From assembly GCF_019464535.1 (NCBI RefSeq), contig NZ_CP080507.1, forward strand, positions 3,390,001-3,422,000: a DNA stretch of 32,000 nt, read 5' to 3'. Position 1 is the first letter of the stretch, and every line of letters begins with the position of its first letter. This document shows positions 1 through 29,296 of the stretch, one piece after another. Below the pieces are notes generated by a model. That model was not told the origin of the DNA. It saw only the letters and a list, made by a program, of their open reading frames with translations, and did no database searches. The DNA comes from Horticoccus luteus (GTDB lineage: Bacteria; Verrucomicrobiota; Verrucomicrobiia; Opitutales; Opitutaceae). A program made the position numbers and the translations under genes.

Positions 1-3000
1 TCCCGTCGTTGCGGCCATCGGCAGTGGTGTCGCCCGTCAGGTATTGCGCTGGCGCCGAAGTGACCACGTTGGCGATGTCTTTCTGGGCACCGGACGGCAT
101 GAGGATGTATTTGTCCTTCAGCCCCTTGAGCGGCAGATAATAAACGACGAGCGAGTTACTCGCCCAACTCGGCGTGTACGGTGCTGTCGAGGCAACGCCG
201 CTGAGGGTTTTATGGTTAACCGGATTGCTGTAGCTGAAGCTGTACAGCCGCATGTAACCAGTGGAGTTGAGCACGGCCTGGCGCTGCGCGTCGTTAAGAC
301 CGGTGAAATCGAGGTAGCTGTCGGACTTGTAGTCGGAGGTGACCGACGTGGCGGTGCGGCCGAGGTGATCCTCATCGCCGGCATTGGACCAATTGATCTG
401 ACTATTGAAGTAGTCGACGCCTTCGATGAGGATCGCTTTGTATTTCGAGCCATCCGGCGCGTTCGGGTTATAGTAACCGATCTGCTCCAGACTGATGTCC
501 ATCGTCTGATACTCCGAGCCCACCTTGACTTGGGTGGTGCCGATTTCCTCGGTGATCGTGGTGTATTCCAAGTGTGACTTGGGCACGACAATTTCACCGA
601 TGGCTACCTTGGTTGAACCGGTGACTTTGGTGACGGACTGCGTGGTCGTATCGTAAACTGGCACCAACACGGTGCGCTCGCCCGTGACGCTGGCGTCGGC
701 GGTCAGGATGACATCCCCACCCGCCCGCATCTTGAGTGCGCCGCCGGCCGTCACCGTGCCTTGCCCATTCACTTGAATGGTGCCGCCATGCAAATCGCTG
801 GTCGCAATCGTGCCTTCAAGCTGGGCGCGCGTCTGCAGCGTGTTGACGCCCGCGTTCATATCCAAGGTGCCGGCGGAATTCACCAACCCGTCGACGTAGA
901 GAAGGGAGTTCGCATTGATCAACATCCGCCCGGTCGTCGCCGTGACCTTTACGATGCCTTTGACGTAGATGACGTCGGCCGCAAGGTGCACCAGCGTATC
1001 GCCGATAATGATCGACTCGGGATGCGTGAGATCGACCTTGCCGTTGAGGAGGATGCTTTGCCGACCGTGGAAATAGTTGTCGGCCCCGCTGGCGGTTGCG
1101 TAAACGTGGCTGCCGGCGACGAGATTGATGCTGCCACCTTCGATCGCCACGTGGTCGCGGATATCGATCGTGCTGGTGATAATGACGTCGCCGCCGGTCG
1201 AATTGATCGTCAGCGAGGAAACCTTCGCGGCGGACGCAGGATTGCTCGGGTCGACCAACTGGCCGAGTACACCTTTAACCAGAATCGTATCGACGCCCGT
1301 GAGCGTGATGCTGCCCCCCGCCGCCGTGTCGACCGTGCCGCCGGTCAGTCGGTCGCCGTTGGCATCGAAGGTGAACTCATTAATATAGATCGAGAGGTGG
1401 GTGCCGTCAGTGCCCCCGGTGATGGAAACTTGATCGTAGGCGGAAACGAGATTGTCGATCAGGACGAGAGAATTGGAGAAGAGCGTTAGATCCGAACCGA
1501 TGTTCGCGGCCTGCACGACGCCTGAGATCTGAATATCGCCCGTGGTGCGGACATCGATCGACCCACCGGTGATAGTGTTGGCATCGGTCCATTGGCCCTG
1601 ACCTGACCGATCAAGCAGAATTGAGCTCAGATCCAGCACCGCGAAGCCGATCCCGTTCGCATCCATGCCGGATTGAATCTGGATGGCCCCTGAGGCCGCG
1701 AGGTAGCCGCCGGCAGGCACAACAGCGAAATTGGCGTCCAAGCCGTTGCCGCCAAGAATCACGGATTGTGTGCTGGTGATATAGAGATTCGAACCGGCAC
1801 CGGTCCACGAAACATCGGTGGTGTCGCTGTCAAAATCCGAGCCCGCGATCACGCGCCCAACGATGACAATACTCTGGGCTTCAAGGCGGATCTGGCTGGC
1901 GGCCCCCGAGGAGAGGATGGAGGCGTCCGCGCCGATTTGCAGCGCGCCGGCGGCGGTGATCGCGACCGCGGAATTGCCCTCCAACGTCGCGCCCATTGGA
2001 GTCGAAGTGCCCGCCACCGGATCAACATTGCCGAGCGCAACATTGCCGCCCGAAATAATTGTAAGGCGTTCGCCGGCACCGCGGACCAGCAGCCGCGTGT
2101 CATAGGCGGCAACATCGCCGCCGGAGGTCACCGAGACGGAACCCGCGAAGCTGAAGTCGCCATGGAGCGCGATCGAACCGGTGGCGGTGAAAGTGATTTC
2201 GTAGTCGTCAGTCGCAGGCGTGGTCCGGGTGCTGATGATATGGCCGTCAATATCAAGTTGGCGGCCCTTGAAGTTGAGCTGGGCACCCGTCTCGATCCGT
2301 CCGGCTTGTGCGGCGACGGAGAGTTTGCCTGTGGTGGAGGTTATCTCGATCAGGCTGACGTTGGGATTATCGCGACCGACTGTATTGTTGATGACCACAT
2401 CGTTCTGACCGGTGATCAGAATCCGGCCCGCGGTGCCGGTCGAAGTGAAGACAGCGGAGGGATCCGTTTGCACGCTGACTTCCCCGCTCTTCTCCGTGGT
2501 GCCGGCGGTGATGATGATGTCGCGGTCGGCGGTAAGGACGCCCTTGATTTCGATCGTGTTCTTGGCCGCGATGATGATGTCGGCATTGTGACCGCGGGCG
2601 ATGAACGTGCCGGTGATGACGCCCTGGCCGCCGGGGTTCAGCACAATATTGCCGCTAAGGGTCTCGATCACACCCGAAGAACTCACTTCAAGATTCTGGC
2701 CGCCGTCGGGAGCGAAACCGCTGTAGAGATTTACGGCATTGTAGCCGCGAATCCAGCCGGCGATGTAGATCTTGCCGTTCGGCGCATTCGGCCGGCCCAG
2801 ATTGGCCACGGATCCGAGTTGGCCGGCGTCGATGACATACGGACGGTTCGAGCTGGCTTGGCCTTCGCTCAACTGGGTGAACCCGAGTAGATTCGCCGCG
2901 CCGTCGGTCACCGCGTCAACGGACATTGCGGAGCCACCGGTCAGCATCAGGCGACCGTCATCGAGGCGGACCTTGATTTGAGAGGAATCAACGTGCGCCG

Positions 3001-6000
3001 TGCTGCCGATCACGGGCGTGCCTGAGGGCGAGATGAGGACCTTGAAATCGGTCGCCTCAATGGCGGTTTGAAGATCTGCCACCAAGTCGCCCAGGCCTGT
3101 ATTATCCGCAGTTGCAGATTTCAGGAGTGTCACCACGCCCGAAATCGTGTTCGTGCCCAAGTCCATCGTCAGGCGGAACGAAACGTCTGAGGTCAGATGC
3201 CCATCCACGTATTGGGCGAAGTCGGCCGCGATCAGTTCCTGCACCCAAGCCGGCGCGAGCACCGACATGTCGCCAGCGGCGCTCAAGTTGATGATGGCAT
3301 TTTGCTGCCAGGTCGCGAGGTGGACGTTGCCGCCGAGCACAATGCCCTGACCTTGCCAAAGATTGTCGGGCGTGGGGACGCCGGGATCATTGCCGCCGCG
3401 CACATCAATCAAGTGGCCGGCGGTAAGGTCGCGTCCCAAGCGGACTTGGTGACCCGCCTCGATGGTGATCGAGGAGGCGCCGCTGAAGTTCCGCGTCGTG
3501 CTGCCAAGGTAATCTCCCGCTGCATCGTAATGGTCGACAATTTCGCCGCCGGCGATGAGCAGGCCGTTGATTTCAGCATCCTGGCCGGAGCGGATGGTGA
3601 TGGTGCTGTCGGGGTTGTTGGTCGCGAGACGGGCGCCGCCCGGCATCTTCACGCCGATGTCGTCGGAATTGCCGCCGCCGATAATTGTGATGCTCTGGGT
3701 CGCGCGGATCGTGCCGCCAATCTCGACATCCTCACCGTTCAACGACCGGGTCATGGCGCCGAGATAGACTTGGCCGCTCGTTGAGATCGCGACACTGGAG
3801 TTTTCGTCCGACCACGTCGTCGTCTCACTCAACAGGTGGCCATCGGTGTCGAACGACTGCGTCTTGTTCCCGCCGGACAAGATCGTGGAGGCGACCTGAA
3901 CGTTGCCGACCGCATTGATGGTGACCGAACCGCCGCTGTTGTCTGAGGTGTAGCCGGCCGCGCTGAGGCCGGACGCTGTCGTGAGAACGACGGACAAGCC
4001 GGCATCGTCGAGGCTGGGCTGATCGGTGGTGGTGAGCGTGACGCTCTTCGCGGCCGCCAAAACTGTATCAACGTAAATGCGTTGGCCGGCGTTGACGAAG
4101 ATGGTCGAATCCGGGCCCTCGAAGGTGACTCCGGTCGGTCCGAGCTTGCCTCCGGCGACCACGGCGCCTTCGAGGATCACGTCCTGTCCGCCGGCGATTT
4201 GGACACTTGTGCCCGGCGTCGTAGTGTTGAGCGTAGTCGTGGCGCTCACGTAGACGCTGACACCGTCGGCATTGGCTTGCTTCAGGTTCGTGCCATCGAG
4301 CGAGACGCCGCCGAGCACGGTGATGTCGCCCGTGACGTTGGCCTGGCCTTCCCAATACACCCAGCGGTCGGACTGGACCACGAGATCGGAATTTGCGCCG
4401 AGGAGATTGATGTTACCGCGGATAATCGCGTCTTCGGTGCCGCTGATGACGATATCCGTGTTGTCCTGCATCGTGGTCAGTGTGCCGGCGAGGAGGAAAC
4501 CATAGCCGCGCTGGCCGAGGAGCGGATGGGGCGCTTCGATCAGGATCTCGTCGAAGACGCCGTCGTTCTGGTAGTCGCGGGCATCGATGACGTATTTGTG
4601 GCCGTCGGAATCCTGGACGATCCAACGATTAACGCCGGCCGCCGGGGTGCCGGCTGTGGCCAGGGAATCGTTGGTATAGTCGATCCCCTGGACAAACGTG
4701 GTGACCACCTGCTTACCGGCCGACGCCGCGGCGTTATAATAAACGTCGCCTTCGTAGTGGGTGTAGCCGCTCTGCGCGAGAACGCGGTATTGTTGGTCCG
4801 CCGTCAGATCGTCAAACGCGGTCCCGGTCGCCGGCACATCCACGTCGCTCCAGCTAATCTCGCTGTTCTGGTAGTCCGTGCCGGCGGCAAAGGTGAGGCG
4901 GAATTGATCGGCGGGCGCGGCCACCACGTTGTGGTAAACGACTCCCTTGAAGAGGCGATAGCCCGTCTGAGCCAGCACCACGGCCTGCTGGTCGGTCGTC
5001 AGGGATTCGAACTTCGCACCATCGTCGGGCTTGTCGACCGTGCCCCAAGTGATGTCCGCGTTATGGTAGTCGTCCCCTTCGACCAGAATTTCGCGAATTT
5101 GGTCTCCCGCCGCCTTGCTGGGGTTATAATACACAGGGCGACCGAAAACATCGTAGCCGAGGCTTTGCACGACCACCAAACGTTGGGCCGGAGTCAGATT
5201 CTCGAAGGTGGTGCCATCAGCCGGTGCCGCGACGCCCCCCCAGTCGATCTGGTTATAGGAGAAGTTCGGCGCCTGACCCTGAGTGAAGCCAGCCACCAAA
5301 GCCAATCCAAGGCTGGCGGCGGCGTTGAAATAGACGGTGCTGTTGTAAGTGGTATAGCCGAGCGCCGCCGCCACGATCGTCTTTTGCGCAAGGCTTAAGC
5401 TGGCAAAACCCGCATCAGCCGCGGGCGCACCGGCCGCGCCCCAGTAAATATCGGCGTTGCGGTAGTCGTTCACCGGGCCTTGGGAGAAGTCGTAGACTAG
5501 CTTCAGGCCCGGCACCGCGTTATAGTTGAAGAACGCATAACCGTCGTCTGTCCCGTAGCCGAGCGTCCGCGCCACCACAAGTTTTTGAACAAGCGAGAGG
5601 TCCGCGAAAGCGGTGTTGCTCGCCGGCGCCACGACGTGGCTCCAGTTCACGCTGGCGTTGTGATAATCCACGCCTTCAACGAAACCGAGGCGGTAGCGAG
5701 CCGATCCGGCGGCGTTGGGATTGGTGTAAACGACGCCGGCAAAAGGCGCGTAGCCGTCCGCCGCGGTGGCGGAGATCTCCGCCCCGGGCGCCGCGTTCGC
5801 ATTATAGTAGAGCGGTGCACCCTTGTAGAGATCGTAGCCCAAGCTCTCAATGACGACCAGCCGCTGGGCCGCGGTGAGATCATCAAATGTTGCGCTCGCA
5901 TCGGGAGCCACGACGCCTGAGGTGGACCAATCGATCTGTGCGTTGCTGTAGTCGGAGCTTTCGCCCTGGCTGAAGGTCGTGAGCACTTGCCGGCCTACCG

Positions 6001-18000: not shown

Positions 18001-21000
18001 CCTCGATAGGATCGGTGCTAAAATCGATTACGTTGGCGGAGGCGTCGTCGAGAAGGCCGAGCTGGGTGTTGATTTCGACTTCGATGGAATCAGCTGAAAG
18101 CGTGAGACCAGCGACACCGACGAAGCCGACCGAATCCGCGGTCGCATGAAGCGCGAGCCAACGCGAGGCAGTGTCCGTGGCGTTGGCGACCTTCTCGGTG
18201 AAGATGCCCAACGCAAAGTCGACGCCGGTTAAACTGAGTCCGAGCTTACCCGGCGTTCCGCCATTGATACCGGCGAACGCCGAGAGTCCGCTGCCGCCAA
18301 TCGTCATGGCTCGCACATCGACTTCGGTGTCGTCCGCCAGTTTGACTGTGGTCGCGGCCTCGCGGATCGCGAGCGACCCGCTGACCTCGAAGAAGTCGCT
18401 CACGCGCAGGAGAATGTCGCCGCTGAGTTCCAATAGTTGGCCAACATTGCCCGCCATCGTCAGGTCGATCGTTGTGCCGTCGCCCGTCAGCACGCTTAAC
18501 GCGTCGGTGTGGTAATCAATCACCTTCGAATCGGCGTCGTCGCTGGGGGATACGCCTGACACGCGATTGACGGAGAGTGCGATGTTCGACGCGGTGATCG
18601 CGAAATCCGGAATGCCGACCAGACCAATGCTCGCGGCCGTCGCCGTCAGACTGGTCCACGCCAGGCCCGCGCCTCCGGTTTCAGAAGCATCTGGCGTGAA
18701 CAGAGCCAAGCCGAAGGTGAGGTCGTTGAGACTGAAGCCGACCGCTCCTGCGTTGCTGGCCGGACCGTTCACTCCCACAAACGTGGTGATGCCGTGCCCG
18801 CCGATCGTCAGCACCGTGGTGCTGACTGTCGTGCCGTCCGCGAGGGTGACCGCCTGCGGCTTGCTTTCGATCGCAATGCTACCGCTTAAGAACACGAAGT
18901 TCGCCACCGCAATTTCCGCTTGTCCCACCACGACGCGGACCAGGCGATCACTAAAATCGATGAGCACCGGCGATCCACCCGTCGGCACCGACAAACCACC
19001 GCCGGTCATCTGGCTGAAATCACCCGCGGTTACGAGGCCGGCCGGATCTTTAGCCACGTTTACTTCCACCGTGATGTTCGACGCTGTCAGCGTGAGCACG
19101 TCTTCGAAACCGATAAACGCCGCCGCGGCCGCCGAGATTTTGAGTGCCACATAGGTGACCGGTTGGGCGACGCCCGTTTGCTTCAGCAGTGCCAGGCCGA
19201 ACGTAACATCGCCGATCGCCAGACCCGCCGCGCCGCTCGTCGTATGGCCGCCGGCGCTGTCGGTCCAATATGGACCACCGGTGCCGGCAAAGAGATGCAA
19301 ATGCGAGCCGCCAATTGTCACCACATCAAGATCGCGCGAGCCGCCGTCGGACAACGACTCGACCACAGGGACGCCGCTTTCGAAGGCGAAGCCGCCGCGG
19401 AGATACACGAAGCCCGCAACTTGGATCAAGGCATCACCAATCGTCACGCTCGCAAACCCGTGATCGAAATCGATGGCGATAGGTGCGGCGCCCGTCTCCA
19501 CCGTCAATGCGCCGTCCGCGAGCCCCATCGCCGTGAAGTCGCCCGCGGTGACCGCGCCGGACGCGTTGCTGGCCTTGTTTACGCCCACCGAAATATCGGT
19601 CGCGGAAATTTTGAGTATATCGTCCAACCCCACGAGGCTGGCGCTCCCGGCGGTGAGCTTCATGGCAAAGTATTTGACCGGATCGGCCACCGCGCCGGAT
19701 TCGCGCAAGAGCGCCAATCCGACGCTGAGGTTGCCGATGGCGATGCCGATGGCCCCGTCCGCTGCCGGCGTGTCGTGCGTATCAACCACGCCATCGTTGT
19801 TGCTATCGACCCAATACGGCCCGCCCAAGCCGGCGAACACGTAGACGTTCGCTGCGCCGATCGTCAGAACATCGAGGTCGCGCGTGCCGCCCCCGGCCAG
19901 TGTTTCCGTAACGGATTGACCTTTCGTGAACGCGATCGCGCCGCGCACGTAGATGAAGCTGGAGACTTGGATGAGCGCATCGGCGACGCTCACCTGCAAA
20001 AGAGCCTCTGCATAATCAAGTGCGATGGTGCCCGCCCCCGTCGCAACGGCGAAGCCCGCGTTACTATTATATAGAGAGAGATTCACCGCGGCCACGGAAT
20101 CTGTGGTCGACGGGTCGGCGGCGCGATTGGCCTGCACGGTCACGCCTCGCAGCGTCACAGTCACCATCGACTCGACGCCCACTAACGCCGCTGATGCAGC
20201 GGAGACCTTGAGGGCGAGGTAGCGTGCGGTGTCGGCGGTGTCGACGGGCCGCATCGCCAGAACCGCGAAAGAAACATCGCCCAACGCCAAGCCGACCGCC
20301 GGACCCGCGAGCGGCGTATCATTGCCGTCGATGACGCCATTGGCATCTGAGTCGGACCAGTAGGGGCCGCCGACGCCGGCAAACACATGAACATTCGCGC
20401 CGCCGACTTGCAGCGTTTCGACGTTTTTGGTCGATCCATCGGTCAGGGTTACAGTCGTCGTCACGCCTTGGGTGAAAGCGAAGGAACCACTCAGGTAGAC
20501 GAAGTCGGCAATGCGGAGTGTTCCCCCGGTAATGCTCGCGCTCGTCGTGCGTTCGGAAAAGTCGAGCGTCACCGTTTCGCCGCCCACCGCGACTGCCAAG
20601 CCGCCCCCAGCCATTTGGGTGAAGTCGATTACGGGGGCCGGAGTCGCTTCGGTTGCAGCGGCGGAATGAGCGGTATTAATAGCGAGATCGACGCCGGTCG
20701 TGCTCAGTTCGACATCAGAGAAACCGACCAACGCCGCCGTGCCCGCGTGGGCCTTGAGGGCAACGTAGGTCGAAGTGTCAGCCTGGTCCGTGGGCGTAAA
20801 CCACGCAAAGGCGACGTTCACGCCGGACAACGCCAAGCCCACCGCGCCTTTGTCCGGAGTGTCGGCGCCATCGATCACACCATCGTGGTTAGAGTCCTGC
20901 CAATATGGCCCGCCGGTGCCGACGAACAGATTTACATTCGCCGCCGAAACCGTGATGGCCTCCACCTGTTTGGGCGAGCCATCAACGTTAACGGAGAGGA

Positions 21001-22012
21001 ACTGAGTGTAGGTCAGAGTAAACGTGCCCGACAGGTAGGCGAACTGCGAAACCTGCATTTCGCCGCTCACGGTAATGCTGGTCGGCACAAAGTAATCGGC
21101 GTTGAGCAGCTTGCTGAACGTATTCCGGTTCGCCGGTCCCGACAGAAACGCGGCCACCGCGCCGTCAGAAATATCGCGCACCACGAGCTTCACCCCGGTG
21201 CCGCTCTGGACGACTTGGAAATAGTGCGAGCCATCCGAGAATCCCGCGAGGCCGTCGGCATCCGCAAATTTGCCGGTGACGCCAGTTGCGGACAGAATGT
21301 CGAACGTATCGCCGGCCTGCGGCACATAGGCCGCGTCAACAGTGACCTCCAGTTTCCCGTTCAAGGTCGCCACGTTGCTGACGGAAATCTTCCCATAGTG
21401 CGTCGCATCTGTGATGCCGATGCTTACGGTATCGTCTGCGCCGAGCGCTAAGCTGCTCAAGGCGACTTCTCCGGTCGAACCATTCGCTTCAATCACCGAA
21501 CCTGCAGCGGGAGCGGCCGGATTCCGCTGCACCTGCGCTGACTCTAAGATATCGCTATTTGCGGGCGGCCCTTGGCTGCTATGGAGACTAGAGACTAAAA
21601 GAGACGCTGGAGAAACGACGTTTTCCGGCGCAGGCGATGCTTTCTCCGACACGGCGACCGTGGGCGCACTCACAGGAATCGGCCGTTGCGTTGGTTTTAC
21701 CGTCACCGTCGTGTGAGCTCGTCCGCGACCGACTTCCACCGCAGCCGGTGCGTCCGCTGCGTGACCTTCAGTGACAGGCGCCGATGGCAAAGCCGCTAGT
21801 GCAACGCCGTCAAAAAGGTCAGAGCCTTGGCTCGATTGCGCCGCATGACTGGTCAGCGCTGGCGCCAATTCAATCGCCCTATTGAGCGGGGTGAGCACGC
21901 GTTGCACGTTAGCCATCGGGGTCGCAGATAGCAAAACCCTGGCCTCAAGCGCCTCGATGAGGAACGCGGAAGCGGCGGGCTGACGTTCGAAGTTTGAACG
22001 GCGAGTGGGCAA
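1..22012 (-). CDS. Giant repeat-rich secreted or surface protein (adhesin-like). The 5' end is in the window and the 3' end lies beyond the left edge; at least 7,337 codons are visible.
   Basis: The reverse frame with codon first bases = 1 mod 3 has no stop from 22060 to base 2 (hand translation, end to end). It is bounded upstream by an in-frame TAA at 22061-22063. Every minus-strand ORF in the track between 1 and 22000 lies in one of the other two reverse frames. This ORF is absent from the track because it has no stop inside the window. Codons are GC3-rich and the protein sequence is coherent and modular. In-frame start candidates are TTG 22010-22012 (preferred), TTG 21932-21934 and ATG 21914-21916. 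Confidence 0.9.
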   Translation of the reverse strand, partial: MPTRRSNFERQPAASAFLIEALEARVLLSATPMANVQRVLTPLNRAIELAPALTSHAAQSSQGSDLFDGVALAALPSAPVTEGHAADAPAAVEVGRGRAHTTVTVKPTQRPIPVSAPTVAVSEKASPAPENVVSPASLLVSSLHSSQGPPANSDILESAQVQRNPAAPAAGSVIEANGSTGEVALSSLALGADDTVSIGITDATHYGKISVSNVATLNGKLEVTVDAAYVPQAGDTFDILSATGVTGKFADADGLAGFSDGSHYFQVVQSGTGVKLVVRDISDGAVAAFLSGPANRNTFSKLLNADYFVPTSITVSGEMQVSQFAYLSGTFTLTYTQFLSVNVDGSPKQVEAITVSAANVNLFVGTGGPYWQDSNHDGVIDGADTPDKGAVGLALSGVNVAFAWFTPTDQADTSTYVALKAHAGTAALVGFSDVELSTTGVDLAINTAHSAAATEATPAPVIDFTQMAGGGLAVAVGGETVTLDFSERTTSASITGGTLRIADFVYLSGSFAFTQGVTTTVTLTDGSTKNVETLQVGGANVHVFAGVGGPYWSDSDANGVIDGNDTPLAGPAVGLALGDVSFAVLAMRPVDTADTARYLALKVSAASAALVGVESMVTVTLRGVTVQANRAADPSTTDSVAAVNLSLYNSNAGFAVATGAGTIALDYAEALLQVSVADALIQVSSFIYVRGAIAFTKGQSVTETLAGGGTRDLDVLTIGAANVYVFAGLGGPYWVDSNNDGVVDTHDTPAADGAIGIAIGNLSVGLALLRESGAVADPVKYFAMKLTAGSASLVGLDDILKISATDISVGVNKASNASGAVTAGDFTAMGLADGALTVETGAAPIAIDFDHGFASVTIGDALIQVAGFVYLRGGFAFESGVPVVESLSDGGSRDLDVVTIGGSHLHLFAGTGGPYWTDSAGGHTTSGAAGLAIGDVTFGLALLKQTGVAQPVTYVALKISAAAAAFIGFEDVLTLTASNITVEVNVAKDPAGLVTAGDFSQMTGGGLSVPTGGSPVLIDFSDRLVRVVVGQAEIAVANFVFLSGSIAIESKPQAVTLADGTTVSTTVLTIGGHGITTFVGVNGPASNAGAVGFSLNDLTFGLALFTPDASETGGAGLAWTSLTATAASIGLVGIPDFAITASNIALSVNRVSGVSPSDDADSKVIDYHTDALSVLTGDGTTIDLTMAGNVGQLLELSGDILLRVSDFFEVSGSLAIREAATTVKLADDTEVDVRAMTIGGSGLSAFAGINGGTPGKLGLSLTGVDFALGIFTEKVANATDTASRWLALHATADSVGFVGVAGLTLSADSIEVEINTQLGLLDDASANVIDFSTDPIEVKTGSTTTMALEFAGADGDLLRATGNLKIDLFGFASLNGEMAIEKKATTVTLADADKTSVAVDMLTIGGHGLNAFVGINGGTPDAIGFEVTDLNFGLGLFTPTGAATSGDHRTWTTLGATAASITATGFENFGVTVAVTELELEINRASGTDASAVANTTVLDFSATPLDVLTGVGSTFAISTDGSRGQLTRASADVQLELFDFLYFRGRIGFEQTTPADELTLSDGTTATTESVLAITGSNVSAFVGYATGGVDADQSFSDQRSNLYGFGVEGVDFALLEVKAGGKNYTALKASAASVAVYGFDPSDFDLSFENVTVEVNQGGVKGAPTIDFATTFAADGGLSVRTGGNDAIFDYTGGERLGLFAETATLSISSFVYVRGSIGIEKATYEAGTLDNGNPIAGAGQGFAIGGSGVDLFVGYASGGVDRDQSFADQAANLYGFGVENVDFGMVKVTAGGQTYTAVSAHADTVKLYGIDPEIFQLSASDVNIEVNNSSVPGKALDFIKSFGADGLTVRTGGTPVSLTYDNTERLGVFAGSALLSIYRFVYFSGSLGFEKFTVAANTLDNGLPITSAGQGFTIGGSNISAFVGYASQPINPALSFADQADHLYGFGVEGVDFAVVQIQAAGATYTAVRAHADTVALYGIDAEYFQLSATDVNIEVNRSTVPTKALDFKTSFGTDGLTVRTGGDDVIIDYDAGERLGVFVGEALLTVYRFVYFRGSLGFEKFTTAAGTLDNGLPIAGSGQGFTIGGSNIDVFVGYATTAIDSAKTFDEQKDNLYGFGVEGVSFGMVQIEAGGQTYTAVKAHADTMKIYGIDPEIFQISASDVNLEVNQSTVVGKALDFGASFGTDGLTVRTGGDDIVLDYGAGERLGVFVGEALLTVYRFVYFRGSLGFEKFTTAAGTLDNGLPIAGSGQGFTIGGSNIDVFVGYATTTIDSAKTFDEQKDNLYGFGVEGVSFGMVQIQAGGQTYTAVKAHADTMKIYGIDPEIFQISASDVNLEVNQSTVAGKGLDFGASFGTAGLTVRTGGDDVVINYDAGERLGIFTGEALLTIYRFVYFRGSLGFEKFAVSANSLNNGLPIIGSGSGFTIGGSNISAFVGYATTAIDSTKSFEEQKDNLYGFGVEGVSFAVVQIKAGGQTYTAVKAHADTMKIYGIDDEIMQISATDVDVEVNQSTLQGKALDFTKSFADGGLTVRTGGDDVTLDYTSGERLGIFAGEAVLTVYRFFYFRGGIGFEKASYGATALKSSLSLPLGAADGFSVGGSDISAFVGYIDGQIDPAKTFAQQADTLYGFGVEGVSFGLTQIKAGGFTYTAMKLSAASVALYGFDPDVFQLSAGNITAQLNQSNNPLGAVINFATSFPNSVGPPGLEIRTGGASVVLDFTTAVIGGSVEDATLNVAGFVYLKADVAFSQGEKANVDIVGGTLGTLHDVPVNTLTLVIENAEAFVGVDGPYRNADGTVNDAAVGFVIDDLNLALVVMKTVVGNQTYVAMKATATQIGFVGFGADLFDLTIQDITVEVNTGPLGTAVNFATSFPANGTDPAGLQLTIGANTVVIDYTNSRILAQTTYARLTLSQFVSVQGAFAFEKQTISLVDFHAGPIVVQAAAEVLTISASHVYAFAGIGGPYWTDNIGGHVASGALGLAIGDLSFALAIVTPSLGGVVNITNMQFYAFTAHVGSAALVGVANIPGLGSFDISDWLSLSAFDISFSLNVGKLPGFYVDFSSFGGLSFSLPGLNLDIDFNTNLLSLDIGLGNLGLLGLFTISGSFSFSFSLDLGGLPRLSLAGLGDLLGDLPDSLDFLKGAFDFLKNLNLSIGFDPDFGFSLTGLLEIPDLTLNLGGFVHLQGDFAFNFGDRHEVDVATGFPGNLTDLAGDSLSALLDQIIKLPAFLKPDFSSDLATLHNVAVSAITIGASNVSVFIGYGTPDFSKDFADQDLIGFGMRDVDVGLGIFNAESVLGIDVPRMYALKITAAEVGTYGFGDWFTVRAEDITVEVNYGDEWSFAKGTGWAPVINFQSSFPANDTDPLGLKVETGGDPVYLAFDGQQRIGLTVGYAEIRLASFVEVYGGFSFLKGPAYRTTINTGVSSDIADSLGLPTEFDNIEMSTITLGASHVRAFVGIGGPYWTDSDGDHRITEFDSKSDSAIGFAIDDFNFALAILEPTIVPAQLAKYTPKFYALRATASSVAFVGGGDIFKFELKDVDVEVNGSSITSPISPFIDFKASFPAEAAGVDSDGDGLIGEPAGLQVGTGGDPIYLDFDSRILKLATSMATLQVAGFIYLRGSFAFVKGPTQTVTVNDGFGHSFTQEVEFMTIGASQVYGFVGLNGPYKSDTNNDGVIDSNDTVNSDAIGLSLENLNLGIAIMTPTVIPNGASPVKYMAIKATTDRVQLVGVGDVITLDGRDLVLEFNDINVPGLTVAAMLLPTPSIDFKATYETAPGARDGVYHLDTGDPLHPVDLDFGTELIRLKIGYAEIQIAGIIQISGSMEFSLGPTQDVTLSDGSHKTVRTMTLGMNDVYGFVGFNGPYFSDTDGSGKIDENDTTNGSAVGIALSNLDAGFMFMQSVDVTDPSFYFAGKLSVGFIGLVGISGLTAEATDFKVEVNLGGSISSGLAVVDFQHSFAGGSFAVPTGNDAEPVVLDFDNLRIAASGHLKVDIFGVLSVEGIFDFELTNEKMVMFIDATASINIAGTQLFSAHALGLMAITSAGVGMKLELDANFTLASVLDFDASFGFYLNTTGEAFVYTVPDSLKAHVSYTTVTITAGAPQIDGSEGPAGAYLVLRGSGDLTVAGFIKLHGDFYIGIQFEAFQLELQVNATAELFIGTLTASGYLKINDQGVVGSLQLAGQVDLGGVIKVTGTFQMEINSTDTAQSIQTLNIADDGSLIGNGLKAGTIAAHTYRIMVGAKLTLIDLIEFKGRLELIFSDEGLEANLDMQLDIGIGILAVQGAAAFLNTESEGVVFALSISTTASLALGPIGIDATALIEMNTGTSTHAGVTGNTYRIGIDGTMKLIAFTVAVQGSISVVDNVFELRIDHANLNFFNFITVGISGYIRSDGHFKINGTVSVSLDLGPLEFNAGMSLTFSDSGFEGHFWGSLDLSINMGLFKIHATLAGVDATIKLTEANASMNLRVTIVGISFSVGMSWSWGAPPIIATQVGDTLYLNMGPRGIYRDQPGKDLYADIKNESYLIKPNGDGGLSVSSLGVTSVYYGINTIIADGGDGNDSIQVAAGVTAKLVFDGGDGNDVFLIAGGASSSTIHGGAGKDQLVGGGVSGIHYYGDDGDDSFIGGSGDVVIDMGSGTNVISTGSGNDTLYLDGSSDTVSLGGGNNTIHVNLSGYAYIGGGAGFDRVIIDPLTSTEALNFNNHEFLYQNRTLDFDDNVDRVEITDSAATTTFKSAPNASWGATDLFIDAAGVLNVQNIIFKAPTALLSIHTAGGIDGTLNTQLAELSVVNNAPAGLLANLTVREADDLNIVDDNSTNGGLYTAAGAIDVQLAGREALLTLASGVLSTANGGGNIRLTADDMDFVSGDDKVSGLGSLTIRSTSPLQNYHIGGSAQSTYGRDYSTAGATGYLDLGMTDLSALQDGFSGIAIGHQASNVMMYVGDVEDETIGYFNFKARFTDAAVLVADHIVVQGDVQSTTDLTFVGGYMEVLRNNVRDPLGAPDSGVTAPRTHINITEQLVVSGWLRGGDLLEVTVNGTTGVNQIVGYGDEPNSITADRGSIFGSLNDGSRVIVTTSASIVSATAIFATGDDASVEMTAGTSLTIDEGAFVSVYGNRSTITLRSSTYLHLNPGGAISAGVQYTFNGDTPVPHLVGRDTTLTIAAGGELELAGSVSAGGAMTISAGATVHSFADYFDYLSGPTLVTVAYTQAIIDALNSGTISADLRAALATKHLTLGNDATAVSVDNFLPFSSLSSDQKAAVATMLGYTVYTDGAYYNATTGVFATVLVEGDLPAYQNSAINWGAAGAPAANATFASLTSAQKQAVATSLGYTTLNGPVFYNASAPVGRQVLTTFSQGESSDYSNAQIDWSTSGVVAPDASATFDDLTAAQRLVVIESLGYDLYKGAPLYYNANAAPGAEISATAADGYAPFAGVVYTNPNAAGSARYRLGFVEGVDYHNASVNWSHVVAPASNTAFADLSLVQKLVVARTLGYGTDDGYAFFNYNAVPGLKLVYDFSQGPVNDYRNADIYWGAAGAPAADAGFASLSLAQKTIVAAALGYTTYNSTVYFNAAASLGLALVAGFTQGQAPNFSYNQIDWGGVAAPADGTTFENLTPAQRLVVVQSLGYDVFGRPVYYNPSKAAGDQIREILVEGDDYHNADITWGTVDKPDDGAKFESLTTDQQAVVLAQTGYRLFKGVVYHNVVAAPADQFRLTFAAGTDYQNSEISWSDVDVPATGTAFDDLTADQQYRVLAQSGYTHYEGDVYYNAAASAGKQVVTTFVQGIDYTNDSLATAGTPAAGVNRWIVQDSDGHKYVIDARDYQNDGVFDEILIEAPHPLLGQRGYGFLLAGTLTTMQDNTDIVISGTEDAIIRGNINLLGANSDLVVQSDRWVYWEGQANVTGDITVLGGVSLDGTNLKQANADGVSVYVSATTTLNTTTPGTSVQIAGGQDVILEGAVVAGGKLGPTGVTFEGPDSTIFVNAGQRIYVDTVLAAAKSVTLTTTDQPSLDDAGLSVVLTTASGLSAAGYTSDNSGGSVTINAVGNVQVASTILSGGNKTQSFDTDGHLLSETTTWSDENSSVAISTSGQVYLGAMTRSLNGEDVEIGGTIRATQSITIIGGGNSDDIGVKMPGGARLATNNPDSTITIRSGQDAEINGLLIAGGEIVDHYDAAGDYLGSTTRNFSGASSITIEAGHQVRLGRDLTAGHLIDVRGGNDPGVPTPDNLWQGQGIVLGGNVHLATWQQNAIINLSAAGDMSVLAPAWVQELIAADFAQYVDGHLTSDVSFRLTMDLGTNTISGVVTLLKSATADNTGLGDLVADLQTAIEATDFKVLISPSGTPVIGSTAHVDSSQIKVRLDDGRLMLTGGSAMSVDAVTDGAANLLGFTQLSEGQASSNRPYVIDAGQLGSVANLGRPNAPNGKIYIAGWIRGYNAVNLYSGFAPDGGQNLEVSSSGVIETLSGNIVLNPGGQGVITGTFIARGHNADIIIAAKNTIEIKGVLTADRDIIITAGTTEKSGEVSVQTDPSAVFTSTGTAGRILITGQNDVVINNTVGRDNPNVSLIEITSTTGKLSVAAQAGRIETGAQLNFKGRQLDIDGHIISTRTTPATDDYEITFTATGSIALHGDFSFAGSVSVTSGGDVAAYDTRLLVRGAGERLTIISGGNVALGNVDPVAGTSTPMGATLEGNSAVAITAAGALQIGADASILSSGAASQIRLEAQSIVIVGRVIAGSDFDSDTTDVSWTGAGSNLYITSTQSVILGGNGLDANFAVVPAGGYLAASGAIQIQSGMDANGIGFAVLDLSSILLDRSGQGQWTDANTITGGSIDVRTTGDIQISGVVQAANIGSDLTLFSNSLVLIDNLVSAYDQVSITGGTDGTHLSIYINEFTFDANGDRLTGGTVDTAAGGSITLTGVDTILVKGVLGQLVDPSNPASAAKVSSLTINSTGGDVIITSTIDIRDHVAIEGGSINLVAGSHVYATASGADNYFHGRQSILLNGKVDLTHPESIIIGDTLVHLAADVIYVKGIVKVTATTGRMLINANSLLYVDGLVNSAGTLDMNAGVNTLQTRAQLEGTIATSDLHGGTIQVNGQGTVTAGGALKMRAGGDVILTADASVTGERTVLVPVYDTTTQSVTKVTGSTKVAIGEIVVPKSHLEYTTITEEIGTTQVKVGSEYQTMDISLEQIGYYNPNAPDGSKYKAILIEGVDYFNSQINWSNAGDEDHLGRTATSVTSDYKSDSYLDFTGLNDAQRQAVLNSTGYMRLYSFSYSNPVNHKTLSGVASTAPYTPSWASNSLVVYYLPLKGLKDKYILMPSGAQKDIANVVTSAPAQYLTGDTTADGRNDG
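210..490 (-). repeat. Further partial copies of the same ~65-aa repeat near the C-terminal end of the visible protein
   Basis: Translation reads ...LEQIGYYNPNAPDGSKYKAILIEGVDYFNSQINWSNAG... and ...YLDFTGLNDAQRQAVLNSTGYMRLYSFSYSNP.... It shows the same Q-[KR]-x-x-V-x-x-x-x-G-Y, Y-x-N and G-x-D-Y-x-N-x-x-I-x-W elements. Confidence 0.5.
4661..6287 (-). repeat. Eight tandem copies of an unrecognised ~65-aa repeat (one copy expanded to ~93 aa)
   Basis: Consensus read by eye: F-x-[DS]-L-[ST]-x-x-Q-[KRQ]-x-x-V-x-x-x-L-G-Y-x(4-6)-[YF]-[YF]-N-x(8-12)-F-x-x-G-x-D-Y-x-N-[AS]-x-I-x-W-x(4-6)-P-A. The (L/S/T)GY codons fall near 6233, 6041, 5834, 5556, 5353, 5153, 4958 and 4763, giving spacings of 192-207 bp and one of 278 bp. 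Confidence 0.75.
7973..8371 (-). repeat. RTX-type (hemolysin-type) Ca-binding nonapeptide region, a probable beta-roll
   Basis: Translation reads ADGGDGNDSIQV..FDGGDGNDVFLIAGG..HGGAGKDQLVGGG..YGDDGDDSFI. Five back-to-back 9-mers follow: GGSGDVVID / MGSGTNVIS / TGSGNDTLY / LDGSSDTVS / LGGGNNTIH. Then comes ..IGGGAGFDRVII. Confidence 0.7.
13802..17392 (-). repeat. Seven-unit tandem DNA array with a period of 510 bp (outer units 516-525 bp), encoding seven consecutive modules
   Basis: The N-terminal Phe codon of each unit sits at 17392, 16876, 16366, 15856, 15346, 14836 and 14326; the next, different module starts at 13801. The string ggtgctttggttgacctcgagattcacatcgctcgccgaaatctgga occurs at 14984 and again at 15494, with diverged versions at 13964, 14474, 16004 and 16514. 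The track's shadow ORFs 15079..15345 and 15589..15855 are near-identical and lie 510 bp apart. Confidence 0.9.
20318..20353 (-). other. Canonical 12-residue EF-hand-like (dockerin-like) Ca-binding loop DSDANGVIDGND, one of six such loops in the modules
   Basis: The loops follow a conserved G-G-P-Y-W. DSNHDGVIDGAD at 20861-20896. DSDANGVIDGND at 20318-20353. DSNNDGVVDTHD at 19772-19807. DSDGDHRITEFD at 11594-11629. DTNNDGVIDSND at 10982-11017. DTDGSGKIDEND at 10391-10426. Acidic or amide residues occupy positions 1, 3, 5, 9 and 12, Gly position 6, and an aliphatic residue position 8. Confidence 0.6.
21923..21961 (-). other. N-terminal LEPR-XLL-like signature, L-I-E-A-L-E-A-R-V-L-L-S-A
   Basis: Translating upstream of the first ATG gives (TTG)M-PTRRSNFERQPAASAFLIEALEARVLLSATP-M(ATG 21916). 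The arrangement is an Arg-rich stretch, then F-E, then L-E-x-R-x-L-L-S-A. This matches the N-terminal signature seen on very large Planctomycetota/Verrucomicrobiota proteins annotated as LEPR-XLL domain proteins. Confidence 0.6.
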
Positions 22013-22321
22013 GGACGAGGGCCGACCCTGAAGATTCGGCTGCGCGTCGCAATCCCCTTTTTACACCATTAGAGACATAAATCCGACAGCCATGACAGGA
22101 TTTAGTCTTCTATCCGCCTACGCCTAAACCCCGACAGGCCGTTTCGGCAAACCCTGACTTTGGGGCGTGGAATTGGCATTCCGCTGCAGCGCCCACTCCC
22201 TCGCCGGGAAAGATCGCGTGGGGCGGGCAACTCGAAACGCGATTCCGTCTCTGCGCCTCGTCCTACCGAACCACGGCGTCAGCGCCGCACTTCGCGGTCT
22301 GGAGCATTTTTCGGATCTGTC
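22013..22321 (-). promoter_or_regulatory. Intergenic leader upstream of the giant gene; presumed promoter region
   Basis: This is 309 bp of non-coding DNA between the stop of the hybrid kinase (22322) and the proposed TTG start. It contains the most AT-rich stretch of the neighbourhood (about 22055-22130). I could not identify a convincing -35/-10 pair or Shine-Dalgarno sequence. Confidence 0.3.
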
Positions 22322-23875: not shown

Positions 23876-24120
23876 GGGGAAAATCTCGTCTAAGAGCATC
23901 TTGCCAAAAGGAAGCGTCCGACGTGCGGCCAAGGTAGCAGCGTTTCCCGTGTCTGCACCTCAAAAGATTTCCAGCCGCTCAAAATATTACTCGGTATTTG
24001 GATAGGGTTTTACCCGATGCCAAAGTCGGGGATTGTGCCCCGGGCCGCACTTGGCACGGGACCGCTTCCACGGCAATTACCTCGGCTGCGGTGTCGGTCC
24101 ACGCCCGCGTTTCCAGCTAC
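23876..24120. promoter_or_regulatory. Divergent intergenic region between the hybrid kinase and the sensor-kinase operon
   Basis: Non-coding if the preferred starts (23875 and 24121) are correct. It contains an AT-rich patch, caaaagatttccagccgctcaaaatattactcggtatttggatagggtttta, at about 23961-24012. No promoter elements could be assigned confidently. Confidence 0.35.
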
Positions 24121-25566: not shown

Positions 25567-26027
25567 GCAAACCCAAAAACATTCTCCTCGCCGAAGACAG
25601 CCCGCTCGACGTCGAGATGACGGTGACTGCGCTGAGTGACCACAATCTCGCCAATACCATCGTCGTCGTGCGCGATGGCGCGGAAGCCCTCGACTACCTT
25701 TACCGCCGCGGCGCCTTCGCTGCGCGCACCGACGGCGATCCCGCCTTGGTCCTCCTCGACATCAAGATGCCTCGCGTCGACGGCTTGGAAGTCCTCCGTC
25801 AGATCAAGGGCGACGATTCCCTGCGCACGATTCCGGTCGTCATGCTCACTTCGTCCCGTGAAGAGAGCGATCTCGCCCGCAGTTACCGCTTGGGCATCAA
25901 CGCCTACGTCGTAAAGCCCGTCGACTTTCCGGCGTTCATGGACGCGTTGAAGCAAGTCGGCGTTTTTTGGACCGTGCACAACGAACTCCCGCCTTCCTCC
26001 ACGGCGCCCGCGCCCGTCTTGTCGTGA
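25563..26027 (+). CDS. Single-domain (CheY/Rcp1-like) response regulator with no output domain
   Basis: Within track ORF 25482..26027; the preferred start is ATG 25563 (MSKPKNILLAEDSPLDVEM...). That ATG overlaps the kinase stop as ATGA (25563-25566). Acceptor context is LVLLDIKMP, followed by VVMLTSS and AYVVKP. The C-terminal ...FWTVHNELPP tail is typical of Rcp1-type regulators. Confidence 0.85.
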   Translation: MSKPKNILLAEDSPLDVEMTVTALSDHNLANTIVVVRDGAEALDYLYRRGAFAARTDGDPALVLLDIKMPRVDGLEVLRQIKGDDSLRTIPVVMLTSSREESDLARSYRLGINAYVVKPVDFPAFMDALKQVGVFWTVHNELPPSSTAPAPVLS

Positions 26028-28503: not shown

Positions 28504-28511
28504 CGTCGCAT

Positions 28512-29291: not shown

Positions 29292-29296
29292 GGCTT

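Follow-up and report, generated by a model that had tools for sequence, protein, structure and literature searches.

A 7,337-codon stop-free reading frame of the LEPR-XLL family in Horticoccus luteus, a candidate calcium-stabilised surface fibre

LapA of Pseudomonas, MpIBP of Marinomonas primoryensis and SiiE are huge, acidic and cysteine-poor RTX rods which are built of repeats, depend on Ca2+ and are held at the cell surface. MpIBP is an adhesin of 1.5 MDa (PMC3492233), and both LapA and MpIBP are surface-tethered (bioRxiv 10.64898/2026.03.19.712371). In these proteins, the N-terminus is a folded retention module, the extenders are Ig-like (BIg) domains of ~100 aa, and the RTX block lies at the C-terminus beside the secretion signal. 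The type V exoproteins (FHA/EtpA, SPATE, Ag43) are likewise poor in cysteine and exported unfolded. Giant beta-helix/RTX proteins are also frequent in the PVC superphylum, Verrucomicrobiota included (10.1101/2023.11.21.568195; 10.64898/2026.03.19.712371). The Omnitrophota giants and Cag_663 and Cag_665 of Chlorochromatium, which belong to the class above 10,000 aa, are dominated by beta-helix and have been modelled as rigid Ca2+-binding filaments. Finally, the LEPR-XLL giants are catalogued by NCBI under a single N-terminal motif (NF012209), and a Vibrio member of ~8,000 aa is described as having C-terminal RTX and serralysin domains (PMC10868602). No LEPR-XLL member studied experimentally was found in the searchable literature.

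Here, we focus on a reading frame of Horticoccus luteus (Verrucomicrobiota). The stretch of DNA analysed, referred to as the window, is 32,000 nucleotides long, and its positions 2-22012 hold, on the minus strand, the 5' part of an intact gene of the LEPR-XLL ('LEPR-8K') family, predicted to be of the expressed type. The features are as follows, from upstream to downstream, with the evidence for each in brackets.

22322..23932, minus strand: hybrid histidine kinase/response regulator, directly upstream of the giant frame (Pfam HisKA, HATPase_c, Response_reg)
22061..22063, minus strand: in-frame TAA bounding the giant frame upstream
2..22012, minus strand: giant ORF, N-terminal 7,337 codons (stop-free frame, codon LLR, dN/dS, colinear homologues)
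22010..22012, minus strand: most likely start codon, TTG (the sole ATG/GTG/TTG upstream of the LEPR-XLL motif)
21911..21964, minus strand: LEPR-XLL motif, aa 17-34, ...FLIEALEARVLLSA, preceded by a basic stretch (NCBIfam NF012209 'LEPR-8K')
21080..21910, minus strand: Pro/Ala/Ser-rich linker and small unclassified beta-rich segment (aa ~180-311), together aa 35-311 (translation)
10073..21079, minus strand: 20 tandem all-beta modules of 170-185 aa, aa 312-3980 (unit-built HMM, AF2)
8396..10072, minus strand: non-repetitive beta-rich region conserved in the family, aa 3981-4539 (colinear alignment to relatives L002-L004)
7913..8395, minus strand: RTX-type Ca-binding beta-roll block with GGxGxD motifs, aa ~4540-4700 (Pfam PF00353)
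6302..7912, minus strand: Gly/Thr/Ser-rich region, aa 4701-5237 (composition, colinear conservation)
4652..6301, minus strand: ~8.5 tandem repeats of 66-68 aa, aa 5238-5787 (HMM search)
524..4651, minus strand: parallel beta-solenoid rod, aa 5788-7163 (AF2 of aa 6138-6900)
2852-3124, minus strand: alpha/beta domain inserted in the solenoid, aa ~6297-6387
2..523, minus strand: isolated repeat of the 67-aa type and last visible residues, aa 7164-7337 (HMM search)

The frame, whose codon tops fall at 1 mod 3, contains no stop from position 22060 to position 1, a run of 7,353 codons with a chance probability of ~3e-95 given the base composition. Counted from the TTG at 22012, the ORF leaves the window at its left edge after 7,337 codons, and its C-terminus lies beyond. 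The initial annotation had proposed just such a single reverse frame of more than 7,300 codons, incomplete at the edge, and had named an in-frame stop between bases 2 and 22060 as the observation that would speak against it; none was found, and the TAA at 22061-22063, the TTG at 22010-22012 and an ATG at 21914-21916 lie where it had put them. The frame appears empty in an ORF list because the lister drops ORFs that are open at an end. As had been remarked, the tops of the complete minus-strand ORFs (at least 60 aa, positions 1-22000) are all 0 or 2 mod 3 (21 and 7 of 28, respectively), and none of the 28 lies in the giant's frame.

Coding statistics agree with this picture. A codon log-likelihood trained solely on Pfam-supported neighbouring genes was scored per 2.75-kb block in six frames, and the giant frame, the best of the six, reached +0.20 to +0.30 per codon throughout, whereas none of the other five rose above +0.06. 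Its GC content at the three codon positions is 0.59, 0.46 and 0.74. The plus-strand ORFs, of which 11960-15130 is one, score ~0.03-0.06 with a GC3 of 0.58-0.63, and on account of these low values they are antisense shadows, as the initial annotation had it; the plus strand is not favoured. Between paralogous internal units, dN/dS is 0.05-0.15 at DNA identities of 61-89%. The giant frame is thus a real, single coding frame under purifying selection. Its size had been placed in the extreme tail of bacterial proteins, which holds when counted per genome but not for want of precedents, since the 10,000 longest proteins in BV-BRC all have at least 10,624 aa (bioRxiv 10.1101/2023.11.21.568195).

The N-terminus is what ties the protein to a named family. 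Residues 17-34 align to positions 1-18 of the 24 in NF012209 with 21.6 bits (cutoff 17), which bears out the LEPR-XLL-like N-terminus seen earlier, given the TTG start. Starting at the ATG at 21916, on which the initial annotation had anchored the frame, would remove the motif, and the motif thus requires TTG 22012, which puts its first residue at 22, inside the span of 14-44 found for six N-complete relatives. On the sequence evidence, TTG 22012 is most likely the start, with no clear Shine-Dalgarno sequence before it, no sigma-70-type promoter detected upstream of the ORF and no Rfam match in the window. The N-terminus consists of a short basic stretch followed by LE-x-R-x-LLS and is not a Sec or Tat signal: the first 70 residues lack a Sec-type hydrophobic core, with a maximum of 1.57 in a Kyte-Doolittle window of 12 aa. 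This is in contrast to the type V exoproteins with their Sec signal peptide, and the visible part also gave no TPS/haemagglutinin-activity domain and no autotransporter barrel in Pfam or NCBIfam. It is equally unlike LapA, MpIBP and SiiE, where a folded module takes the place of this 24-aa motif, and unlike the Omnitrophota and Chlorochromatium giants, which have other N-terminal features (C39/S8 peptidase, signal peptides) and other domain sets. The linker and beta-rich segment that follow (aa 35-311) have no Pfam match.

Beyond the motif, the visible body is almost wholly beta, made up of 20 modules, the RTX calcium block, the 67-aa array and a long parallel beta-solenoid. An HMM made from the module units recovered 20 full copies and one fragment, one module being interrupted at aa 3088-3227; TRF had overlooked these 510-nt repeats, its period limit being 500. 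The AF2 model of two units (pLDDT 90, pTM 0.84) has long antiparallel strands of 15-20 residues. It found no significant structural match in PDB or BFVD, and its insignificant neighbours are outer-membrane beta-barrels and BAM/autotransporter barrels (E >=0.014, TM <=0.24). By sequence, the module matches nothing in Pfam, NCBIfam or PDB. The second repeat, with the consensus F..L...Q..VV..LGY...VYYN....EG.DY.N..I.W, is present in 5-9 copies in relatives and has no Pfam match. The two repeat families that could not be named at first sight thus proved to be 20 copies of 170-185 aa and ~8.5 (plus one isolated copy) of 67 aa, neither of them in Pfam or NCBIfam. Where LapA, MpIBP and SiiE have Ig-like extenders, the H. 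luteus protein has the long-strand module and the 67-aa unit, and no Ig-like or Big domain was found in its 7,337 aa with Pfam and NCBIfam.

The RTX beta-roll had been recognised as internal, and this stands: PF00353 (HemolysinCabind) matches within a 740-aa chunk at 29.8 bits, above its cutoff of 23, the period is ~19-20 aa, and the position of the block is kept across relatives at 41-48% identity. Lying ~60% along the visible part and making up less than 3% of it, the block differs in place from the C-terminal RTX blocks of LapA, MpIBP and SiiE. The visible protein further contains four DxNxDGxID motifs, with such a loop in some of the 170-185-aa modules. They had been described as EF-hand-like loops; the calcium-loop motifs are indeed there, but the AF2 model sets them between long beta strands with no flanking helices, and no EF-hand family matches in Pfam over the 7,337 aa. 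The region before the RTX block (aa 3981-4539) has no Pfam match either, and the one after it (aa 4701-5237) is probably beta-solenoid, to judge from its sequence pattern. Weak Pfam matches to SdrD_B, bPH_5, Eno-Rase_FAD_bd and GAAD were below cutoff, included no significant stretch and were set aside as noise.

For the solenoid, AF2 of aa 6138-6900 (window 1313-3601) gave short strands in triplets with a pLDDT of 94.9 and a pTM of 0.89. The top Foldseek matches are the RTX block of CyaA, the passengers of EspC, EspP, SepA and Pet, and EtpA, Ag43 and RsaA, all statistically weak (best E 8e-4, TM <=0.2); six of these (EspC, EspP, SepA, Pet, EtpA and Ag43) are type V exoproteins and, with the RTX block of CyaA, the best structural neighbours. 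Such matches support the modelled solenoid as a fold class and do not point to homology, and the beta-helix tracts suspected earlier are thereby borne out, with secreted beta-solenoid proteins as their neighbours, if weak ones. The last visible residues, aa 7164-7337, have 41-48% identity to relatives that extend at least 3,300 aa further.

Relatives were gathered from genome and metagenome scans, where they have ~41% identity and ORFs that exceed both ends of 20-22 kb loci; 350 cluster representatives reach E <=1e-3. The C-terminal half of the visible protein is colinear with giants of Gamma- and Betaproteobacteria and Campylobacterota: stop-free giant ORFs of Oceanospirillum, Rhodoferax and Halarcobacter align over 3,800-3,950 aa at 38-42% identity, and in the relatives the frame stays open from one end of the 21-22 kb loci to the other, also where GC is as low as 32%. 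Six relatives (P0020, P0028, P0032, P0033, P0037 and P0054) have both the ~3,800 colinear aa and the LEPR-XLL N-terminus in common. Protein homologue searches gave 2, 36 and 3 matches, all short fragments and none above 800 aa, and the set of 36 consists of generic Big_13 Ig-like proteins. A tblastn search of a plasmid collection returned no match, and the PF25934 label on relative P0187 was not reproduced in a Pfam profile search.

The H. luteus protein thus shares with the LEPR-XLL giants the motif, its distance from the start, a length of many thousand residues and the body, of which the NF012209 model, spanning ~24 residues, says nothing for the other 99.7%. The gene stands in a public complete genome (CP080507; PMC11427312) and the family has been named by NCBI, and so no new kind of protein has been discovered; it is an additional member of a catalogued family, unusual in size. 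In relatives, of which some lack the N-terminus, 2-6 modules were detected, as against the 20 of the H. luteus protein. C-complete relatives run on for 3,170-4,760 aa beyond the equivalent of residue 7337, from which the full H. luteus protein is probably of 10,500-12,000 aa, ~11,000, against the ~8,000 of the Vibrio member. The Omnitrophota and Chlorochromatium giants are 2-8x longer, and their likeness to the H. luteus protein is one of architecture. The relatives' tails hold Big_13 Ig-like domains, or cadherin-like repeats with a HEMGH motif, and at the end of P0008 stands a zincin-like segment, HEMGHVLGL, which at 21.5 bits stays under the matrixin cutoff of 24. AT-rich relatives end in an acidic residue and then hydrophobic ones (...FEYWxNSLVI), which we take to resemble the motif at the very C-terminus of some T1SS substrates.

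The visible protein has no cysteine in 7,337 aa and a pI of 4.27, and relatives of 4,000-7,500 aa are mostly free of cysteine and all net acidic. This is a composition of the export type and argues for export; the lack of cysteine also fits other routes of unfolded export, such as type V. In the 10 kb upstream lie two histidine kinases, a TonB-dependent receptor, DUF4154 and pan/coa genes, and no T1SS (ABC/MFP/TolC), LapG/LapD-like or other secretion genes. The hybrid kinase next to the giant ORF is identical to H. luteus QYM78370.1, no minus-strand terminator-like site was found between the two genes, and the kinase is a possible regulator of the giant gene.

Taken as a whole, the protein is best explained as a cell-surface fibre or adhesin which is exported unfolded and stabilised by Ca2+, a reading to which we give a probability of about 0.6. 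The polypeptide would pass unfolded through a narrow channel of the envelope, most likely that of a type I (ABC/MFP/TolC) system reading the C-terminus beyond the window. Outside the cell, Ca2+ bound by the RTX block and the DxNxDG loops would bring about folding into a rigid rod of some hundreds of nanometres, kept on or projecting from the cell surface as a spacer or adhesin. The 20-fold expansion of the module would set its reach, and the LEPR-XLL N-terminus may be the retained or anchoring end. Specificity in binding or enzymatic action would be borne by a variable C-terminal tail, for which the Ig-like, cadherin-like or zincin-like modules at the end of relatives may serve as a model; the 7,337 aa within the window yielded no domain for adhesion or ligand binding. 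A bolder proposal, tentative and in our view doubtful, is that the LEPR-XLL giants form a distinct class of surface fibre across phyla, in which the 170-185-aa module has a new fold and by stacking builds an uninterrupted ribbon of beta-sheet, and LE-x-R-x-LLS signals an uncharacterised export or retention pathway that is neither Sec/Tat nor of the LapA type.

Other explanations have to be set against this one. That the frame is non-functional, either a misassembly in which repeats were collapsed or expanded, or a pseudogene in decay that is open by accident, is scarcely credible. One pair of units, at aa 2041-2380, has a DNA identity of 89% and some exact 40-mers in common, and the closest relative found, L005, is broken across several frames. 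However, the remaining units are just 61-73% identical, which makes assembly easy, and the source is a complete genome of 4.32 Mb. The absence of stops over 22 kb, the uniform coding statistics, the low dN/dS and the intact giant homologues in four other phyla or classes speak against it as well. An unlikely alternative for the function is that the protein has a structural role in envelope or matrix, for example as an S-layer-like or biofilm scaffold or a beta-sheet ribbon spanning the periplasm and outer membrane, and organises the surface with no specific ligand. This would account for the long strands of the modules, their barrel neighbours, the appearance of the S-layer protein RsaA among the weak matches of the solenoid and the lack of a detected ligand-binding domain. 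Yet the fold matches are far from significance, the protein is acidic, resembles a soluble one and lacks any signal for a membrane span or a lipid anchor, relatives carry tails of the adhesin type, and a single chain of 11,000 aa would be a costly lattice unit.

A rod that presents or injects a C-terminal enzymatic or toxic module into neighbours or a host, as a delivery device or weapon, seems to us improbable. We know of no predatory or symbiotic habit in H. luteus, and no enzymatic or toxin domain was found in the 7,337 visible aa or in the 3,300-4,100 aa downstream in four relatives. What lends the idea some weight is the zincin-like end of P0008, the serralysin domain of the Vibrio protein (PMC10868602) and the ties of giant beta-helix/RTX proteins to cell-cell transfer or predation (bioRxiv 10.64898/2026.03.19.712371; 10.1101/2023.11.21.568195), a similar delivery role having been proposed for the predatory Omnitrophota giants and the giant beta-helix proteins of Chlorochromatium (10.1101/2023.11.21.568195; 10.64898/2026.03.19.712371). 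A secreted pore-forming RTX cytotoxin of the HlyA/CyaA type is very improbable. Such a role was suggested in the Vibrio paper (PMC10868602) and would agree with the RTX block, the CyaA fragment as top match of the solenoid and a partial match to NF033943 (RTX_toxin). The latter, however, reaches 21 bits where the cutoff is 1000 and is confined to the repeats (model positions 673-788), and the RTX block is a small fraction of the protein. The visible protein has neither a hydrophobic pore-forming domain nor an acylation region, and none of the neighbouring genes is HlyC-like. In size and repeat architecture, the protein is of the fibre and not of the toxin type.

Giant genes are routinely missed or truncated by ORF callers, assembly and databases, and H. 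luteus is a case in point: the ORF lister left a blank, the protein databases gave fragments, and lengths cluster near 7,500 aa. A conserved family of 8,000-12,000 aa in Verrucomicrobiota, Proteobacteria and Campylobacterota has remained nearly without domain annotation beyond the N-terminal motif of 24 residues and one small RTX block. Very confident structure predictions now exist for two building blocks of the family, one of them without a recognisable structural relative, and both are candidates for new domain families. If the estimate of ~11,000 aa is true, the gene takes up ~0.75% of the genome (~33 kb of 4.32 Mb). The giant protein probably dominates the contact of H. luteus with surfaces or partners, and as the organism can be cultivated and its genome is complete, the proposed role is open to experiment.

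The reverse frame whose codons have top coordinates of 1 mod 3 runs without a stop for 7,353 codons, spanning bases 22060 to 1, and is bounded upstream by an in-frame TAA at 22061-22063 on the minus strand. At the base composition of the window, the chance of such a run is about 3e-95; the second-longest stop-free stretch in any frame is 1,068 codons. The initial annotation had already described one open frame reaching the window edge, with TTG at 22010-22012, ATG at 21914-21916 and the bounding TAA, and all of this was confirmed. It had also remarked that the third reverse frame yields no listed ORF, and indeed each of the 28 complete minus-strand ORFs of at least 60 aa within 1-22000 belongs to one of the two remaining reverse frames. 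The blank is explained by ORF listing that drops any ORF open at an end.

That this frame is coding follows from three independent lines: composition and codon usage, selection, and homologues. Its GC1/GC2/GC3 values are 0.59/0.46/0.74, in agreement with the GC3-rich codons noticed earlier. When codon log-likelihood ratios were trained solely on the six Pfam-supported neighbouring genes, the giant frame scored +0.20 to +0.30 per codon in all eight 2.75-kb blocks, while the remaining five frames reached at most +0.06. The plus-strand ORFs 11960-15130, 3947-5395 and 1694-2887 have codon scores of 0.03-0.06 and a GC3 of only 0.58-0.63, and are therefore the antisense shadows that had been suspected. 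Selection is visible in the paralogous 510-nt repeat units, which differ mainly at synonymous sites. The units at aa 2041-2210 and 2211-2380 share 95% protein and 89% DNA identity with a dN/dS of 0.05; the remaining pairs have dN/dS of 0.06-0.15 (two were not estimable, their synonymous sites being saturated) and DNA identities of 61-73%, which makes an assembly collapse unlikely except at the first pair. Plus-strand GC skew changes sign within the giant ORF, with positive values over 1-9 kb giving way to negative ones from about 13 kb on; the shift follows the make-up of the protein in domains and repeats rather than a replication landmark.

TTG 22012, the sole ATG, GTG or TTG lying after the upstream stop and before the LEPR-XLL motif, is the most likely start, and the protein then begins MPTRRSNFERQPAASAFLIEALEARVLLSA... 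A start at ATG 21916 is unlikely because the motif would be lost. From TTG 22012, the NCBIfam LEPR-XLL model NF012209 (short name LEPR-8K) matches residues 17-34 at 21.6 bits (cutoff 17), which bears out the LEPR-XLL-like N-terminus proposed from the sequence, and all three tests of membership place the protein in the NCBI family. Six N-terminally complete relatives carry the motif LE(P/Q/D/A)R(L/I/Q)(L/M)LS 14-44 residues from the Met, after a basic stretch. A hydrophobic core of Sec or Tat length is absent from the N-termini, where Kyte-Doolittle means over 12 residues peak at 0.65-1.75 and charged residues break up the segment. Neither an evident Shine-Dalgarno sequence nor a sigma-70-type promoter was found upstream of TTG 22012.

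The visible 7,337 residues, all encoded on the minus strand, are organized as follows:

aa 35-311, minus strand: linker rich in Pro, Ala and Ser plus a small beta-rich segment, without a family match
aa 312-3980, minus strand: 20 tandem modules of 170-185 aa (HMM from the units and their alignment, A1)
aa 3981-4539, minus strand: beta-rich non-repetitive region
aa ~4540-4700, minus strand: RTX-type block (PF00353)
aa 4701-5237, minus strand: Gly/Thr/Ser-rich region, by its sequence probably a solenoid
aa 5238-5787, minus strand: about 8.5 copies of a 66-68-aa repeat
aa 5788-7163, minus strand: beta-solenoid

Pfam-A and NCBIfam searches over all 7,337 residues gave nothing beyond NF012209 and PF00353, and phmmer found no match among all PDB sequences. 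The two repeat families that the initial annotation could not name are the 170-185-aa and 66-68-aa repeats. One of the larger modules is split by a low-complexity insert (aa 3088-3227), and an extra single copy of the shorter repeat lies at aa 7164-7271. Two module sub-types emerge from A1, one with GGPYW and a DxNxDGxID loop, the other, comprising the central and most similar units, with ...LYGFGVEGV instead. Of the EF-hand-like loops reported earlier, the loop itself stands; the defining features of an EF-hand protein were sought and not found, and the protein was likewise rejected as a TPS exoprotein and as an RTX toxin on their defining features. The internal RTX beta-roll held up: PF00353 scored 23.0 bits on a chunk of 1,180 aa and 29.8 bits on one of 740 aa (cutoff 23), and the GGxGxD motifs follow one another with a period of ~19-20 residues, at positions kept in relatives of 41-48% identity. 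The beta-helix tracts also found support in a model of aa 6138-6900, built with 35 family fragments (pLDDT 94.9, pTM 0.89), which predicts short strands in repeating triplets resembling a parallel beta-helix, with an alpha/beta domain inserted around aa 6297-6387. Its top PDB neighbours are all beta-solenoid secreted proteins (the CyaA RTX block, EspC/EspP/SepA/Pet passengers, EtpA, Ag43, tailspikes and RsaA); these matches score poorly (best E 8e-4, TM no higher than 0.2) and support the predicted fold class, not homology.

The 7,337 residues include no Cys and have a pI of 4.27, and all segments save the first 40 residues are acidic. Relatives of 4,000-7,500 aa are all net acidic and mostly Cys-free. 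The lack of Cys together with a low pI typifies proteins that pass unfolded through narrow channels in the envelope and acquire their fold on the outside with Ca2+, a pattern seen in RTX/T1SS substrates and to a degree in type V passengers.

HMMER with aa 6138-7337 against 1.84 billion cluster representatives returned 350 proteins at E <= 1e-3, of which 152 at E <= 1e-30. The last 500 visible residues match Oceanospirillum sanctuarii, Halarcobacter, Rhodoferax, Polaromonas and an AT-rich metagenome contig at 41-42% identity, and the alignment to these is colinear from about aa 3500 to 7335 (3,800-3,950 columns, 38-42% identity), their matching frame staying free of stops across the entire fetched 20.9-22.1 kb, even at 32% GC. 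In six family proteins chosen for natural-looking C-terminal ends (P0008, P0011, P0029, P0036, P0072 and P0060), 3,170-4,760 residues lie beyond the equivalent of aa 7337, from which the complete H. luteus protein probably measures 10,500-12,000 aa. Past the equivalent of aa 7337, a conserved core continues for about 2,000-2,300 residues before a variable tail starts; a Pfam search of the downstream parts of four relatives gave no match. Tails in AT-rich lineages carry Big_13 Ig-like domains and terminate in ...FEYWxNSLVI, while that of P0008 has cadherin-like repeats and a HEMGHVLGL segment (matrixin 21.5 bits, under the cutoff of 24). Downstream of the Big_13 domains, the AT-rich P0011, P0029, P0036 and P0072 share the extreme C-terminus ...LSLKPxNLxDFNxxExxFEYWxNSLVI, a possible signal for secretion or sorting. 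The 170-aa module is present 20 times in H. luteus as opposed to 2-6 times as detected in relatives, several of them N-truncated. The nearest relative found, L005:1-14012 (a fetched locus of GCA_037975565.1, JBBCBH010011374.1; 49-57% identity, 66% GC), is broken across frames 1/3/2/3 into many called genes, and similarity to it ends near position 14,000 of the locus; this reflects either a pseudogene in decay or indel errors in the assembly. Representative-library members P0008, P0011, P0016, P0029, P0035 and P0037 cluster at 7,370-7,504 aa with ends cut mid-domain, and a word-indexed protein database returned no family match above 800 aa; these collections seem systematically to cut giant proteins short or to under-represent them.

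The gene is therefore real and intact as far as visible, and its product is an all-beta, Ca-binding, Cys-free member of the LEPR-XLL family. We put the probability of a real giant family protein at about 0.95; that the frame is an artefact or pseudogene is very hard to entertain. As for function, an extracellular fibre or adhesin is the reading we favour, with some reserve. The protein would leave the cell unfolded, most likely through a type I system that recognises the C-terminus beyond the window edge, a route we propose only tentatively, and would then fold extracellularly with Ca2+ to give a long rigid rod serving as surface fibre or adhesin. Repeat expansion would set the length of the rod and the lineage-specific tail its specificity, and the protein may be retained or anchored by its LEPR-XLL end. 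The likeness to the LapA/MpIBP RTX adhesins lies in this way of working; with no Ig-like extenders, an internal RTX block and a different N-terminus, the protein is not one of them. A structural element of the envelope or matrix appears unlikely, a delivery device carrying an enzymatic tail slightly more so, and a pore-forming toxin highly improbable.

The neighbouring CoaX and the hybrid histidine kinase are 100% identical to H. luteus QYM78375.1 and QYM78370.1. H. luteus belongs to the Opitutaceae (Verrucomicrobiota), and the contig carrying the gene measures 4,320,198 nt; the genome is cited as CP080507 (PMC11427312). Upstream of the giant gene lie:

22322-23932, minus strand: hybrid HK-RR, directly upstream of the giant gene and on the same strand
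23998-25566, plus strand: divergent CHASE8 histidine kinase
25967-27940, plus strand: TonB-dependent receptor
27817-28503, plus strand: DUF4154/YfiR-HmsC-like gene (120 bits)
28512-31996, minus strand: compact pantothenate/CoA cluster coaX, coaBC, panC, panB

The 309-nt gap after the HK-RR holds neither a minus-strand terminator-like site nor a sigma-70-type promoter, and read-through or regulatory coupling is possible. The CHASE8 kinase, the receptor and the DUF4154 gene look like a small envelope-signalling module. A minus-strand ORF at 27934-29106 (390 aa) overlaps the DUF4154 gene, has no Pfam match and is probably its shadow. No secretion genes occur from the HK-RR through panB. As listed, the panC ORF shares about 250 nt with panB and matches Pfam only from residue 87 on, so the true start is probably further downstream. 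An identical CoaX on the 2-kb contig L007 (Logan SRR34023387_81636), from an independent sequencing run, places the same or a very close H. luteus strain in the SRR34023387 sample.

There is ample documentation of genes encoding 10,000 aa or more, notably in the PVC superphylum (bioRxiv 10.1101/2023.11.21.568195), and this one lies in a public genome; the protein thus joins an already known, experimentally uncharacterised family. About 99% of this conserved cross-phylum family of 8,000-12,000 aa is without a domain model, and its 170-185-aa repeat stands out as a confidently predicted module with no detectable structural relative in the libraries searched (PDB and BFVD).
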